From: a phage
Reading direction: 5' to 3' (one strand)
Assembly: GCA_027263115.1 (NCBI GenBank)
Contig: GCA_027263115.1_3656.1
Length of the DNA stretch: 64,000 nt
The notes under the pieces: generated by a model
What the model saw: the letters and a program-made list of their open reading frames with translations, nothing else
Databases searched by the model: none
What the model was told of the DNA's origin: nothing
Made by a program: the position numbers and the translations under genes
In this document: piece by piece, positions 14,227-64,000 of the stretch
Layout: every line of letters begins with the position of its first letter
Position numbering within the stretch: the first letter of the stretch is position 1

Positions 14227-14244
14227 TTTTTTAACTGAATTATC

Positions 14245-14270
14245 AAGGGGCTTAGGCCCCTTTCTTTTTG
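14245..14270 (+). terminator. rho-independent terminator closing the early array
   Basis: AAGGGGC-loop-GCCCCTT hairpin followed by TCTTTTTG. Confidence 0.65.
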
Positions 14271-14877
14271 TCTGATCTTCCCCCTACCATAAACGGCCCT
14301 ACCTGGCAAGTGGAATAATTGACGAGCCATCAACCCCACACACTGTACAAATATACATGTAAAATAACTATTGCATAACTTTTCATTGTGTGGTAGCAGG
14401 GCTATTTTTACCCGTTTTTCCTTCCAAAATTGCACGTAATGCAGCTATTGCACAAAATTTAACCTGATGCATATCTTCAGTGTCTTGTCAACAACTAAAA
14501 ATCTTTATAAGTCATGCACTTACATAACCACAAAAGCGTGCTCTACGTGAAAAATCGAGTATAACTATAGCCGCCAGATCTCAGAATTTACGTACGCTCA
14601 CCATTCTATAGTCTGCTAAGTATTTATTCCAACCATAGAATAACGGAATAGTCAATACCTGCATAAAATAATTATTCGTGTAAACTGCATAACATAAATC
14701 AGCTTAGGTGTCAACATTTTTCGTAAACAGTCTGAAATTATCACGATGAGTTATCATAAACAGAGAAATCTTTAGTCGTCTAATGTTTACTGTACGTTAC
14801 TATACTAACTGAAATCATTAGATGACTAATAGAAAGATAAGAAATAATTAACAATACAATTATTTTATCTGTAACAA

Positions 14878-15165
14878 TAAGGCAACTATGCAAACGAATG
14901 GCATGGCGCGACGGAGTCGCGACATAATATAAAAGCAGTAACCATCACCCCCGTGATAGTTTGTCTGCAATCTATTAATCAGATCATAGTTGCCTTGTAT
15001 TTAGTTAATCATGACATAACAAGCAAGGCAACTATAGATCTGCTAATAGTTGCCCTGCTTTTATATTATGTCATAGGAACGCCCGAAGGGGTGACCTAGT
15101 CACCTGGCATAGCCAGCGAAAGATTATTAACTTGGTAATAGTTATCATGCAAACGAATGGCATGG
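14878..15165. repeat. nested palindromic region: 18-bp inverted repeat (about 14921-14938 vs 15055-15072), 19-bp direct repeat ATGCAAACGAATGGCATGG x2, AGGCAACTAT/ATAGTTGCC inverted copies
   Basis: Reverse complements and direct copies read directly in the sequence; no ORF with a ribosome-binding site. Confidence 0.65.
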
Positions 15166-15179
15166 CTTATCATCTCTGT

Positions 15180-15420
15180 GTAAACAGTCAATCATGTAAA
15201 CTATTAGATATGTAAACAGTAAAGGGCGTGAACAGTAAGCGAGGGAATAGTAATAGCGTGAATAGTGACAGCGTAAACAGTGACAGCGTAAACAGTCAGG
15301 CATGTCAATTATGTCATATTGTGTCACCATTATGTCACTATTGTGTCACCAGTATGCCCAGTATGTCAATTGAGTCTAAAGTGTCAAAGGTGTCAGACAA
15401 GTTTTTCTCCTCTTTGTCAA
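15180..15420. repeat. tandem short-repeat arrays (GTAAACAGT family incl. 15-mer TGACAGCGTAAACAG x2; then 22-bp TTATGTCAYTATTGTGTCACCA x2 with further TGTCA units)
   Basis: Direct reading; track ORFs here are low-complexity artefacts of the repeats. Confidence 0.7.
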
Positions 15421-16866
15421 GTGCTGCATGAAAAATTTACAAGCTTGTATGGTAGCATTTTTGCGGCCCGTTTACATTCAGTGATGTATGTATAACCCTT
15501 GTTGTGTGGGAGTTTAGACGTCTAGACGGTTGGAAGTCTGCAGGTCAATATCTAATCTATCGGCTGCTAACTATATCCCACACAAATAGTAAGAAATATA
15601 ATTGTTATATGTGTAAACAGTAACTCATGTTATCAATCCCTGTATGGATCGCCAGTGGTGCGCATAATGGGTATTATGTTAAATTGCCCGTAATGATAAC
15701 AGTTCTCACAATGATAGGTATTCTCATTCATCCACACAAAATAGGTTGCAAATGTTGTGCCACTGTGTGAACGGCCTGGCCTATTAATTTCTCTCACTGC
15801 CTCGATATTTGAGGATTGTTATAAGAATGAGAAGTATTCCCATTCCGTCCGCCTGGCAGCGCTCCTGTAGGTCCTGCAAGGACTCTAGCTGAAAGCTAGA
15901 CCCTTCGGGCCTCCCTGTAGGTCAGGTCAAAATCGTGGCAGAACTGAGCCTGTTCAGATATTTCTGGCTGACTCTTCAGGTCTGTGTGGGAAAAGCCAAC
16001 CTCTCCGGCGGGGCAGGGGAGGGAGGTAAATTAAAAAATTTACGTGGTGTATGAAGCGCTCTTCAGGTAAGGCAGGTATTATGTGATGAAACCCTCTTCA
16101 GGCAATGATATTTGTGGGTGTGATATTTGCTGGAAAGCCAGATATGACGGGACTCCCGGCGGGGCAGGGGTAGTACAGACGGGGGAAATATGGGGATGTA
16201 GTTGGGGAAATTGATCAGGCAGGTAGAGTATGGAATATGTTACAAGTATGTTAAATATGGAGGTTGAATATCTGTAGGATTTGTGTGTAAAATCAAAGAC
16301 TTAAGTGGTGTTGTGGTATTTTCTATAAATAATTCAAGTTTAATAGGTAATATTTGCCTCTATCCACTTTGTGTGGTAAACAGATTCAGATGAGATTAGT
16401 TTACAAGTGTATACATAATATACAAATTAAAGATACAAGAAACCCCCCTCCCCCCTTCGGCTACCATTCACCTTTTCCTCTGACTGGTACTTAAACACTT
16501 ATTCAGACTCTTCAGGTTATCACCCATATATCATATGGCAGTGACTGGTGTCCTCCGGCCCCTCTTTCGTCACCCGTCCGCTTCGCCATGCTAATGCCAT
16601 AGCTAATGGTTCGGTTGTTCACCCTGTTCACTCAGGTGTATCTCTATACCCCTTCAAACCGAAGAGAACAGAAAACCCGAATTACTCGGTAAAAGAAAAG
16701 AGAAGAACTTAATTTTATCAGGATAGGCAAGAATGTCAAGGCATGACTGCTCACTAAACAAGCAAACAGTCATGTGTGGGAGGTAAGTGATTGTGGTGGT
16801 AGGAAATTTAGTTGAAAGATGTGTTATAGGTGCTTCCAGCACTTTAGCCGGGCAGCTAATTGTGTG

Positions 16867-17082
16867 TCAGTCCAGCGGTTCATCCTCTACTTCACTGAAA
16901 TCAATGTTCATGGTCTCTTCCCAACCATCGATCTCAGCACAAGAGTGGAGTTCTTTAGGGTTTACTCCCAAAGCCTCAGCAACAGAGTCTATATTTAACA
17001 CCTCTGGCAGGTATGATTCATCGAATTCAAGGTAAATCAGGCCACGAGTGTTGTCAGCTCCACCAAATATCTCTATCTTCAT
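16867..17082 (-). CDS. hypothetical protein (distal end of leftward block)
   Basis: 71 aa, ATG preceded by GAGGAG on minus strand; N-terminus MKIEI like several upstream paralogs. Confidence 0.5.
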   Translation of the reverse strand: MKIEIFGGADNTRGLIYLEFDESYLPEVLNIDSVAEALGVNPKELHSCAEIDGWEETMNIDFSEVEDEPLD

Positions 17083-55010: not shown

Positions 55011-55083
55011 ACCAGTAAAAACTTAAATATCTGTACTATAAGGGTTTGTATGTTTTATGTTCACCATGGAACAGAAACTATTA

Positions 55084-55167
55084 ACTGTCCGTGATACGGA
55101 CACCACTGTCCGTCACGCGGACACATCTGCCCGTAATACGGACACTAACTGTCCGTGATACGGACAC
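55084..55167. repeat. four tandem 21-bp palindromic iterons (core GTCCGTnAYRCGGACAC)
   Basis: Each unit carries GTCCG/CGGAC inverted half-sites; followed by AT-rich palindromic DNA. Confidence 0.75.
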
Positions 55168-57526: not shown

Positions 57527-57601
57527 GCCCTGTTAGCTTAGTGGATAAAGCAGCGGCCTTCTAAGCCGTTGACACTGGTTCGAGTCCAGTACGGGGTGCC
57601 A
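57527..57601 (+). tRNA. tRNA-Arg (anticodon TCT)
   Basis: Hand-folded cloverleaf: 7-bp acceptor, D-arm GCTT/AAGC, anticodon loop CTTCTAA, T-loop TTCGAGT, encoded CCA. Confidence 0.75.
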
Positions 57602-57605
57602 AATT

Positions 57606-57692
57606 GGGGAGTTATCCCGTAGAGGTAGCGGTGTAGACTGTAAATCTATTGTCATTGCGACTCGGGTGGTTCGACTCCACCACTCCCCACCA
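57606..57692 (+). tRNA. tRNA-Tyr (anticodon GTA), long variable arm
   Basis: Acceptor GGGGAGT/ACTCCCC, anticodon loop CTGTAAA, T-loop TTCGACT, CCA; 87 nt. Confidence 0.65.
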
Positions 57693-57805
57693 AATTTATA
57701 TTTTAGATGCATAAATAATACAGATAATGGCATTGATATTTATCGTCGTTTATACTAGTCACTAACTGCTCGAAAATCAGTGTCATTATCAGTATAATTT
57801 ACAAA

Positions 57806-57896
57806 GGAGGGTAGGGAGCAATGGTGCTCAAGCGGTCTTGAAAACCGTCCCATTGAGGATGACTCGATGATGGTTCGATTCCATTACTCTCCGCCA
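57806..57896 (+). tRNA. tRNA-Ser (anticodon TGA), long variable arm
   Basis: Acceptor GGAGGGT/ACTCTCC, anticodon loop CTTGAAA, T-loop TTCGATT, CCA; 91 nt. Confidence 0.65.
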
Positions 57897-57994
57897 CATT
57901 GTTGACCTTGTAATTAAGCGAAAGCCGGAAGCAGAACCGGATTATCAAATGTTACAGTCGTCATCGCCGACTAGCAACATGGTCAACATACTGA

Positions 57995-58093
57995 GCTAGG
58001 TAAGCCCTTTGGCAAGGGCGAGGATTTTTAATCCTGAAAATAGACGAGGTAGTCGTTGAATACATAGATGGTTCGATTCCATCACCTAGCACC
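57995..58093 (+). tRNA. atypical tRNA-like element (possible tRNA-Lys TTT with about 25-nt insertion, or pseudo-tRNA)
   Basis: Perfect 7-bp acceptor GCTAGGT/ACCTAGC, canonical T-arm GATGG-TTCGATT-CCATC, D-arm GCCC/GGGC, TTT-containing loop; about 99 nt; no encoded CCA. Confidence 0.35.
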
Positions 58094-58098
58094 TTTTT

Positions 58099-58174
58099 GC
58101 TGATGTAGCACAATTGGTAGTGCAATTGATTTGTAATCAATAGGTTGCAGGTTCAAGTCCTGCCATCAGCACCA
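58099..58174 (+). tRNA. tRNA-Thr (anticodon TGT)
   Basis: Acceptor GCTGATG/CATCAGC, D-arm GCAC/GTGC, anticodon loop TTTGTAA, T-loop TTCAAGT, CCA. Confidence 0.75.
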
Positions 58175-58175
58175 T

Positions 58176-58250
58176 GGCCCTGTAGCTGGAAGGTTCAAGC
58201 AAGCGACTCATAATCGCCAGACGGTGGTTCAATTCCACCCAGGGCCACCA
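58176..58250 (+). tRNA. tRNA-Met or tRNA-Ile2 (anticodon CAT), elongator-type
   Basis: Acceptor GGCCCTG/CAGGGCC with paired 1-72, anticodon loop CTCATAA, T-loop TTCAATT, CCA. Confidence 0.65.
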
Positions 58251-58261
58251 AATAGTAGATA

Positions 58262-58338
58262 CTCCGCGTAGCTCAGCTTGGTAGAGCGCCTGATTTGGGA
58301 TCAGGAGGTCGAGTGTTCGAATCACTCCGTGGAGACCA
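58262..58338 (+). tRNA. tRNA-Pro (anticodon TGG)
   Basis: C1-G72 acceptor, D-arm GCTC-AGCTTGGTAG-AGC, anticodon loop TTTGGGA, T-loop TTCGAAT, CCA. Confidence 0.75.
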
Positions 58339-63133: not shown

Positions 63134-64000
63134 TGTCTGAAAAAACGATTACTATTAAAGAGAAGGGGATTGCCCTGTGCCACAAGGCGCAAGGCTATAG
63201 CGCTAACAACAGACCTGTATCTCTTTTGATGAAGAGTGATCTTAATCCTGAGCAGTTAACAGACGATATTGTTAAGGCACTTCGTCAAGTTACTGTGGAG
63301 CTTAGTTTTGAAGAATACCTGCGTCGTTTCTTCGATATGTGGTATGATGATGCTAAAGCACTTGCACACATGCTTGGCTTTGAGATTGAAGAAGAGGCTT
63401 GGGCTAAAGAGCATCCTGATTGGGAATGGGCGCAAGCTGACGCAGAGTCTTGTATTGCATGGCTGGAAGAGCGTTGTGATAACGTGACCATTCATAAAGC
63501 TGCAAAAGAAGGCAAGCAGCTTAGTGTGGTAGATCAATACAGTCTGTTAAAAACACAACAGATTTTTGAACAAGTAACCGCTGATCTCTTCGATAAAGAA
63601 GGGAACCTGATTAAGGCGGTACAGGAACCTGCTGAGGTGGATAAAACTACCAAGGTGGATGATATTGAAAAATCCGCAAATACCGAGGAGAATCCGGTGG
63701 ACGTAACCAAAACCAAAGAGTACCTGGACCTGCTGAAGCAAGTAGAAGAGCTGAAAGCGACCCAGAGTAAAGCTGAAGAAATTATTAAGGCCCAGGTTGA
63801 AGTTGAAAAAGCTAAAATGCTGACTAAGGCCCAAGCTTTAAGCTTTGTCGGTGAAGAAGATCATGCAACCTTGGTTGACTTCATGCTGGAAAAAGCTAAC
63901 GAACCTATCGTAGCTATGCTGGAGAAAGCTCAAGCACGCATCGCAGAGCTGCAAGCTGAAGTTGAAAAAGCTAAAGAAGAGTTTGCCACTACCGAGCACG
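63133..64000 (+). CDS. scaffold-like coiled-coil protein, N-terminal part (continues past window end)
   Basis: Open frame from ATG at about 63133 to window end without stop; Glu/Lys/Ala-rich helical repeats. Confidence 0.5.
   Translation, partial: MSEKTITIKEKGIALCHKAQGYSANNRPVSLLMKSDLNPEQLTDDIVKALRQVTVELSFEEYLRRFFDMWYDDAKALAHMLGFEIEEEAWAKEHPDWEWAQADAESCIAWLEERCDNVTIHKAAKEGKQLSVVDQYSLLKTQQIFEQVTADLFDKEGNLIKAVQEPAEVDKTTKVDDIEKSANTEENPVDVTKTKEYLDLLKQVEELKATQSKAEEIIKAQVEVEKAKMLTKAQALSFVGEEDHATLVDFMLEKANEPIVAMLEKAQARIAELQAEVEKAKEEFATTEH

Follow-up and report, generated by a model that had tools for sequence, protein, structure and literature searches.

Results

The 64,000-nt stretch of DNA analysed here (contig GCA_027263115.1_3656.1 of GenBank assembly GCA_027263115.1; called the window) belongs to a Vequintavirus, an rV5-like E. 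coli myophage, and our subject is a long palindrome at positions 14878-15165. Two convergent gene blocks flank the palindrome, and the gap of roughly 2.6 kb that separates them (about 14227-16866) is free of genes. From left to right, the region comprises plus-strand genes, a terminator, about 600 nt of non-coding DNA, the palindrome, iterons, an array of TGTCA repeats and the direct terminal repeat (DTR) of the virion DNA, and to the right of the DTR follow about 1 kb of non-coding DNA and then the minus-strand genes (Table 1). In the rV5 genome paper this gap appears as a "non-coding" box; the authors expected bidirectional terminators between genes 163 and 164 and found none, and the phage encodes a T7-like primase-helicase (PMC3606486).

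A first-pass annotation of the window had described a perfect 18-bp inverted repeat (IR), a 19-bp direct repeat and short copies in between. Exact re-alignment confirmed the IR: GACATAATATAAAAGCAG at 14921-14938 and CTGCTTTTATATTATGTC at 15055-15072 are reverse-complementary at 18/18 positions, and the two arms are separated by 116 nt. The two copies of the direct repeat were found where they had been placed, but they measure 20 nt instead of 19 (ATGCAAACGAATGGCATGGC at 14888-14907 and 15147-15166), and the short copies are present as described (AAGGCAACTAT at 14879 and 15025, ATAGTTGCC at 14986 and 15046). No second perfect IR with arms of 14 nt or longer, no more than 300 nt apart, exists anywhere in the 64-kb window. 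Thirty first-order Markov shuffles yielded on average 0.13 such repeats for k=14, and for k=16 and k=18 they yielded none; an 18-nt direct repeat is likewise beyond chance in these shuffles. Further exact direct repeats of 19-23 nt, spaced 65-160 nt apart, occur at 2851-2939, 55082-55167 and 63798-63975. A 321-nt segment around the palindrome folded far better than its shuffles on both strands (z = -6.8 and -7.4). An excess on both strands is expected of any palindrome and does not discriminate between RNA and DNA.

Conservation was followed in 19 close relatives, compared from a conserved left anchor to the DTR boundary, a stretch that spans 280-633 bp among them. Of the 19, 18 have the core that extends from GGCAACTAT as far as the right arm (about 14879-15075), with no change in either 18-mer. 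Identity over 14901-15050 amounts to 97.6-99.6%, compared with 87-95% in the flanking non-coding DNA and 93-97% in the neighbouring genes; near the DTR, no other non-coding stretch is as well conserved as the core. The exception is FV3, in which the 20-mer occurs once, in hybrid form, and precisely the 259 bp that separate the direct repeats are missing; it is the sole element-less case among about 120 Vequintavirus records. Each phage genome holds one copy of the core, and an origin from the host or from a mobile element was rejected on this ground and for want of any match in 5,426 E. coli genomes. About 18 GenBank records (MG0656xx) labelled 'Campylobacter phage' match E. coli rV5-like phages at 90-97% over the region and look like mislabelled or contaminant genomes. 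An IMG/VR search anchored on proteins returned only 3 relative loci, and a 16-mer scan of metagenomes gave about 120 matches, mostly due to chance, with the element in two loci only (L093 and L121).

Homologous elements are present in three other genera, Mydovirus, Seunavirus and Henunavirus, so that the conservation in relatives that the first-pass annotation had named as a check extends well beyond Vequintavirus. Klebsiella phage KPP-1 (Mydovirus), whose DTR has been mapped to 514 bp (PMC9862379), likewise has its DTR within a convergent gap and carries a perfect 21-nt IR with a 164-nt spacer about 310 bp outside the DTR. A homology search between the proteins flanking the gap in KPP-1 and in the window, run to fix the orientation, gave no matches; DNA matches that are weak yet agree with one another, among them the boundary motif CTTGACA[AG]GGAG, place the KPP-1 IR on the same side of the DTR as that of the window. 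The same layout was found in Mydo, PVP-SE1, GEC_vB_MG, GAP31, 4MG, EspYZU15, FENT2, KNP2, BIS47 and Ro1, in three more loci taken from public collections of viruses and metagenomes, and in the Henunavirus pEp_SNUABM_01. The arms are perfect over 18-21 nt in 15/15 elements of the other genera as well as in 18 Vequintavirus sequences, the spacers of the other genera measure 152-217 nt, and the distance from the arm start to the boundary motif is 253-428 nt where the motif could be located.

The arm sequence itself varies between genera (GACACAATAACACGGGAG; GACACTATAACACGAGAG; ...ACACTAGGG; GCCACCTATAAAAGCAAGTAG in Henunavirus; GACATAATATAAAAGCAG in the window), and all between-genus differences are compensated in the partner arm. 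The Henunavirus and Mydovirus KPP-1 arms, for example, differ at 12/21 positions, of which 12/12 are compensated. Since the arms covary perfectly across genera, the arrangement has been selected for base pairing. The Henunavirus arm has TATAAAAGCA in common with the window arm and its interior matches Mydovirus and Seunavirus, and through these mixed features it links the Vequintavirus version of the element to the Mydovirus and Seunavirus versions. A run of U residues is confined to the arms of Vequintavirus and Henunavirus and is missing from those of Mydovirus and Seunavirus, and a GUCGC...GCGCCA motif 3' of arm 2 is common to the window and the other genera. We considered the arms as inversion (flip-flop) sites and dismissed this idea, as none of 32 sequences has a flipped interior. 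Small hypothetical coding sequences (CDSs) have been annotated over the element in Mydo (L027, 1879-2070), KPP-1 (L023, 3299-3457) and 4MG (L026, 1830-1970); they are probably spurious because of the covariation in the stems and the indels.

To define the fold, 14 distinct non-Vequintavirus elements were aligned. Their consensus consists of five helices: a 19-bp closing helix P1 formed by the IR arms, a hairpin H1, an invariant 13-bp long-range helix S2, a short extension of S2 and a hairpin H3. Nine of the 53 pairs are changed on both sides (P1 4, H1 1, H3 3, S2 extension 1), and 99.1% of the alignment cells are paired. None of 500 shuffles reached the observed values and structures slid by 1-3 columns gave no compensatory pairs, so that compensatory changes exceed the controls in several helices, namely P1, H1 and H3. 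In Vequintavirus, 14 sequences folded on the minus strand gave a consensus in which P1 has 18 bp and encloses the long hairpin P2 and the hairpin P3 of 9 bp, with the small hairpin P4 at its flank. P2 contains a G.U pair at columns 38/137 and one compensatory change from G.U to U-A, and both the 33-nt insertion of rV5 and the changes of the IMGVR2 locus land in its apical loop; P3 contains a U.G pair, whose plus-strand equivalent is C.A. P1, by contrast with the inner stems to which wobbles are limited, consists exclusively of Watson-Crick pairs in all sequences examined. As P1, the IR closes a folded element of several helices that measures about 150-260 nt.

Hairpin modules recur around this fold. 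Both rV5 (L003) and SYGMH1 (L013) carry an inserted module of about 33 nt (CTCRGG.GCATAGCCYTCGTCTCRAGGRTGTTA), at differing sites: the P2 loop in rV5 and just ahead of direct-repeat copy 2 in SYGMH1. In PVP-SE1, GEC_vB_MG and FENT2 arm 1 is partly duplicated and accompanied by an inserted hairpin module of about 80 nt. Such small modules appear to move within the region homologous to window 14780-15395, and the hypervariable spacer at 15073-15146 is filled by differing small hairpin or repeat modules in different phages.

The element distinguishes between the two DNA strands. In the 14-sequence alignment the wobbles are G.U on the minus strand of the window, with 41 G.U cells versus 0 A.C cells; additional G.U pairs were seen in H1 of 4MG and KNP2 and in P2 and P3 of Vequintavirus, along with one C.A in a single sequence. 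The minus strand was calculated to be more stable than its complement in 31/31 elements (14/14 and 17/17), with a mean difference of about -7.5 kcal/mol under RNA parameters and of -1.7 to -6.4 kcal/mol under DNA parameters. G.U pairs on one strand together with better folding of this strand indicate that a single strand folds on its own, either as RNA or as single-stranded DNA. The folding (minus) strand has its 5' end at the physical end of the genome nearby and runs inward from there. We are highly confident that the palindrome marks a conserved, strand-specific structured element.

That genome end was not part of the first-pass annotation: the element is a neighbour of the DTR. Terminal repeats of 458-459 bp were reported for the Vequintaviruses Gotham, HdK5 and EdH4 in two independent papers (PMC7471380, PMC6563267). 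The records of Gotham and HdK5 carry an exact 459-bp repeat at each end that maps to window 15396-15853 with 94-95% identity, and the record of bov10K2 begins and finishes at window 15853/15854. In a long-read study, Bas54 and Bas51 showed "molecular termination" in the same gap (bioRxiv 10.1101/2025.04.16.649189). As the DTR maps inside the window, the latter is written through a concatemer-type junction, and most GenBank records of the genus likewise run on across the physical end of the genome. From the end of the right IR arm at 15072 it is 324 bp to the DTR boundary at 15396, and this inner boundary falls between TGTCA and GACAAG, about 18 nt from the CTTGACA motif conserved across genera. 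The element is thus fixed in place and orientation beside a DTR of about 459 bp across the sampled genera of the Vequintavirinae and is under selection for base pairing.

Among relatives the DTR is hypervariable on either side; just outside its outer boundary, window 15854-15950 retains 65-72% identity and so mirrors the inner side. Further out, an ultra-conserved non-coding block with a C-rich plus strand (16451-16600) shows 99.1-99.7% identity in relatives. Palindromic AATGATAAnnnTTATCATT motifs, which resemble dimer operators or Fur boxes, recur in and around the terminal repeat of KPP-1 (L023, 3440-3660), and weaker copies occur in the window at about 15691-15730 and 15133-15150.

Two repeat arrays lie between the element and the DTR. 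The first consists of tandem GTAAACAGT(CAA) iterons beside the element, as in iteron-type origins; the copies fall outside the palindrome, with the array at 15180-15300 and further copies at 14723 and 15613. The reverse complement of the iteron, TTGACAGTTTAC, is present as a single conserved unit at the equivalent position in the other genera. Neither an initiator protein nor an AT-rich unwinding element was identified beside the iterons. The second array is made of TGTCA repeats, and its ATTATGTCA also terminates the right IR arm. Its content is hypervariable among phages, on the minus strand it reads TTGACA and TGACATAAT, resembling promoter boxes, and it contains GTGTC, the recognition sequence of T7-type primases; the array may be a site for terminase or primase.

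On the far side of the DTR, the near-consensus sigma-70 promoter-like site at 16712-16739 is directed across the DTR toward the element and lies on the folding strand. It is 100% conserved in most relatives, and in the IMGVR2 locus both boxes are retained although the spacer between them has diverged. A weak hairpin followed by a T-run is found about 25 nt downstream of the site (16677-16689). Local sigma-70 promoters just inside the DTR were rejected as a conserved feature: the TGTCA repeats of the window give good matches, but these are inconsistent across 29 phages. Between the DTR and the element, sigma-70 matches were found on the folding strand in 10/29 phages versus 8/29 on the opposite strand.

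Terminator features occur on both strands of the window: a scan for terminators found a minus-strand hairpin (14961..14940) followed by ACTGCTTTTA, and the plus strand has a local hairpin at 15021-15060 (an alternative to P2) followed by TTTTATATT, which is annotated as a plus-strand terminator in Murica and Alma. These features are not kept in the homologues: the Mydovirus and Seunavirus arms are devoid of a U-run, and in Henunavirus the U-run is 14 nt away from the nearest hairpin. The feature kept across genera is the complementarity from arm to arm. Scanning the window with Rfam at the gathering thresholds returned tRNAs only, and permissive scans of window 14300-16900 and of the KPP-1 gap reached at best 12-22 bits compared to thresholds of 38-80. 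A tRNA predicted by ARAGORN at 57995-58093 within a tRNA cluster (57527-58338) has 99 nt and a 4-base anticodon (atcc), scores 37.5 bits in Rfam and may be intron-containing or otherwise unusual. Coding potential was discarded as an explanation of the element, since only short non-conserved open reading frames overlap it and relatives carry +1 and other frame-breaking indels.

Table 1. Features of the non-coding gap in the window, in order of position.
Feature	Position	Strand	Remarks
Strong intrinsic terminator closing the plus-strand left gene block	14245..14262	+	Upstream of the element, outside it
Direct repeat copy 1	14888..14907	+	20 nt; preceded by AAGGCAACTAT (14879-14889)
P4, small flanking hairpin GCGAC-GGA-GTCGC	14908..14920	-	Consensus fold
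IR left arm, arm 2 of closing helix P1	14921..14938	-	Reads CUGCUUUUAUAUUAUGUC
P3, 9-bp hairpin AACUAUCAC-GGGG-GUGAUGGUU	14940..14961	-	Terminator scan, consensus fold
P2, imperfect hairpin of about 29 bp, from ATAGTTGCC / GGCAACTAT copies	14967..15053	-	Consensus fold
IR right arm, arm 1 of closing helix P1	15055..15072	-	Reads GACATAATATAAAAGCAG; invariant in 18/18 element-bearing Vequintavirus relatives
Hypervariable mosaic spacer, P1 to direct-repeat copy 2	15073..15146		Identity drops to about 0.75
Direct repeat copy 2	15147..15166	+	20 nt
GTAAACAGT(CAA) iteron array	15177..15300	+	Copy number 1 to about 10 among Vequintaviruses
(A/T)TTRTGTCA(C) repeat array	15300..15395	+	Part-phased at 11 nt; abuts the DTR
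DTR of the virion DNA	15396..15853		Placed by homology with Gotham and HdK5
Near-consensus sigma-70 promoter-like site, TTGACA-16-TGATAAAAT	16712..16739	-	11/12 matches plus TG

Discussion

We tentatively favour a role of the element as cis-acting single-stranded DNA in the replication or processing of the genome end. In this proposal a 3' end would prime synthesis inward from the terminal repeat and displace the minus (folding) strand, the displaced strand would become the lagging-strand template of the inward-moving fork, and the folded element downstream of the iteron array would serve as a strand-specific loading or priming signal, much like the single-strand initiation (ssi) sites that plasmids have downstream of their origins. 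In Vequintavirus, the interior would have been rebuilt from GGCAACTAT / ATAGTTGCC copies and the arms would have turned AT-rich, so that local hairpins with a T-run also came to resemble terminators. The preference for single-stranded DNA is due to the fixed position and orientation relative to the DTR, the upstream iteron, the Watson-Crick nature of P1 and the lack of a conserved promoter or terminator; as P1 contains Watson-Crick pairs only and the inner stems wobble, pairing of DNA fits better than pairing of RNA. A 2025 transposon screen found that the gap of Bas54 tolerated no insertions and concluded only that the region has "an important functional role". We checked that this is the same gap: its 2,512 bp include 224 TA sites, 19 of which fall in an element built exactly like that of the window, and none of the 224 sites took an insertion.

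Known ssi or primosome assembly sites include the phiX174 n' site, the G4 origin, ColE1 ssiA, the G-site of plasmid R1 and the single-strand origins of rolling-circle plasmids. Like the element, these signals are strand- and orientation-specific multi-hairpin structures of about 100-250 nt on the lagging-strand template, with an iteron or origin region a few hundred bp upstream of them, and they are usually dispensable. Unlike the element, none of them is closed by a perfect 18-21-bp helix, and it is host PriA, DnaG or RNA polymerase that recognises them, whereas the phage that carries the element has a T7-like primase-helicase. By analogy the element may be an ssi signal; the features shown are its strand bias and its position downstream of the iterons.

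Several observations weigh against a single-stranded DNA signal. The DTR of the window's own phage is placed by sequence comparison with its relatives and would have to lie where they have it, and that the folding strand becomes single-stranded is a step we infer. To our knowledge, a T7-type primase-helicase does not require a structured loading site. The G.U pairs, including the invariant U.G in S2, are more typical of RNA, and base composition may contribute part of the energy bias between the strands. FV3 has been propagated without the element, which is therefore not strictly essential, and this apparent viability conflicts with the intolerance of Bas54 to insertions. The missing insertions could also reflect the method, for example poor expression of the marker near a genome end. 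The two observations would be reconciled if a transcribed insertion of about 1 kb were harmful through altered spacing or transcription, or if the FV3 record were an artefact.

The same strand bias could reflect a structured RNA transcribed from the minus strand, which we regard as possible but not probable. It would be a non-coding RNA or a cis-acting RNA domain with P1 as a processing or stabilising stem of the RNase III type, and it would arise by transcription that starts at the conserved promoter (16739..16712) and reads through the concatemer junction, or that starts at a promoter which has escaped recognition. As the former lies beyond the terminal repeat, such an RNA could be made only from circular or concatemeric DNA and would report that replication has begun. 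The strand-specific G.U pairs, among them the invariant U.G in S2 and a change from A-U to G.U in H3, and the greater strand asymmetry under RNA parameters agree with an RNA, as does the fact that the right-hand gene block is encoded on the folding strand; the near-consensus promoter is conserved on this strand despite a diverged spacer, the Vequintavirus element finishes in a hairpin and U-run on it, and viability of FV3 would be compatible with an accessory RNA. This has to be weighed against the inconsistent sigma-70 matches between the DTR and the element, the missing terminator after the element in Mydovirus or Seunavirus, and a P1 helix that is free of the G.U intermediates expected of an evolving RNA stem. 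Termination in the U-run of arm 2 would preclude the formation of P1, nothing in Rfam comes near a match, and a literature search turned up no transcriptome data for the subfamily. Retron msr-msd (with its a1/a2 repeats), Y RNA, 6S RNA and HK022 put likewise have a closing helix formed by a distant IR around several hairpins as well as G.U pairs on one strand; unlike these RNAs, the element has no Rfam match, no nearby reverse transcriptase or partner gene and no conserved promoter or terminator. We consider it unlikely that the element is the 3' domain of a junction-only transcript, which would start at 16739, run across the terminal repeat and end in the folded element. If this were true, the phage would sense joined genomes and couple junction transcription or R-loop formation to end processing or packaging, in a host-polymerase counterpart of the junction transcription of T7 and with a new class of RNA element at phage genome ends.

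Double-stranded DNA was the level at which the first-pass annotation had interpreted the palindrome, as a cruciform or as sites for a dimeric protein, and we find both quite improbable. A cruciform would be cut by a junction-resolving nuclease to leave a hairpin end that aids duplication of the terminal repeat, a route proposed for T7 concatemers, and the dimeric protein would be, for example, the small terminase subunit or a replication initiator. The strict Watson-Crick pairing of P1 on either strand and the refractoriness of the gap to insertions suit this idea, and the site beside the DTR and short repeat arrays resembles the T7 concatemer junction. A symmetric cruciform is nevertheless disfavoured, since a spacer of 116-217 nt makes extrusion difficult and the inner helices are biased to one strand, to which their G.U pairs are confined; and arms whose sequence changes freely between genera while their complementarity persists are unlike a protein recognition site. 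FV3, lacking the element, argues against an essential role in repeat duplication, and the arms are not inversion sites, given that no interior was found flipped.

At the T7 junction, a 160-bp terminal repeat is flanked by the short-repeat arrays SRL and SRR, and an inverted-repeat 'hairpin end' was reportedly described there by Chung, Nardone and Hinkle in 1990. The existence of a hairpin at the T7 concatemer junction is documented (PMC4281155). T7 and the window share a short DTR, abutting short-repeat arrays and an IR a few hundred bp outside the DTR; this placing of the IR recurs in the three other genera, and like T7 phiOR the promoter-like site at 16739 lies on the far side and points across the junction. 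For the T7 repeat, by contrast with the element, there is no report of a covarying structure of several helices under a perfect closing helix of 18-21 bp. The likeness rests on layout; strand bias and the viability of FV3 argue against an essential cruciform or hairpin-end role in the present case.

A pair of opposed intrinsic terminators, that is, a bidirectional module between the convergent gene blocks in which the 18-mers are U-rich tails, would supply what the rV5 authors predicted and did not find (PMC3606486). The Vequintavirus halves indeed resemble bidirectional or convergent terminators, with a hairpin and a T/U-run on each outgoing strand (14961..14940 followed by ACTGCTTTTA and 15021-15060 followed by TTTTATATT, the latter annotated as such in two phages). 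We hold this to be very unlikely as the primary function. Mutual complementarity over 18-21 nt would be pointless for tails, the arms of Mydovirus and Seunavirus (GACACAATAACACGGGAG and variants) are free of U-runs and yet equally complementary and covarying, and the left gene block is already closed by the strong terminator at 14245-14262, from which about 600 nt of additional conserved non-coding DNA separate the element. Local termination may be a secondary property in Vequintavirus. Least of all do we expect a non-functional by-product, either a quasi-palindrome kept perfect by template switching or gene conversion in a terminal region prone to recombination, or a small insertion with a 20-bp duplication at its flanks, which could hardly be credited even though the surrounding DNA is indel-rich, small hairpin modules are mobile, and 20-nt direct repeats bound the element that FV3 lacks. 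Each of the 4 sampled genera has retained the element, and of about 120 Vequintavirus records only one is without it. Its core is conserved above the neighbouring genes, it is single-copy and absent from E. coli genomes, and its covarying inner helices retain wobble pairs and thus have not been homogenised. The evidence excludes chance, a pair of sequence-specific protein sites, arms that are mere terminator tails and any known RNA family.

A different kind of non-coding region near a phage genome end is the injection-stop-signal region of T5, which is rich in repeats and palindromes and lies near the left end. It shares with the gap of the window its large size, its non-coding nature, its location near the terminal repeat and its direct and inverted repeats; the T5 region separates the pre-early genes from the remaining genome, whereas in the window the stretch from the genome end to the element is free of genes.

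Phages of the rV5 type are widely used in the typing and therapy of E. coli, Salmonella, Klebsiella and Cronobacter. Annotators of their genomes should be aware that the small CDSs over the element are probably spurious in several genomes. The 2.5-kb non-coding region, unexplained since the rV5 genome paper, now has an anatomy that consists of the DTR, a phased array, an iteron and a folded element, the last being a previously undescribed covarying and strand-specific structure that occurs subfamily-wide and whose mechanism we infer. This anatomy makes the replication and processing of the genome ends of rV5-like phages directly testable.

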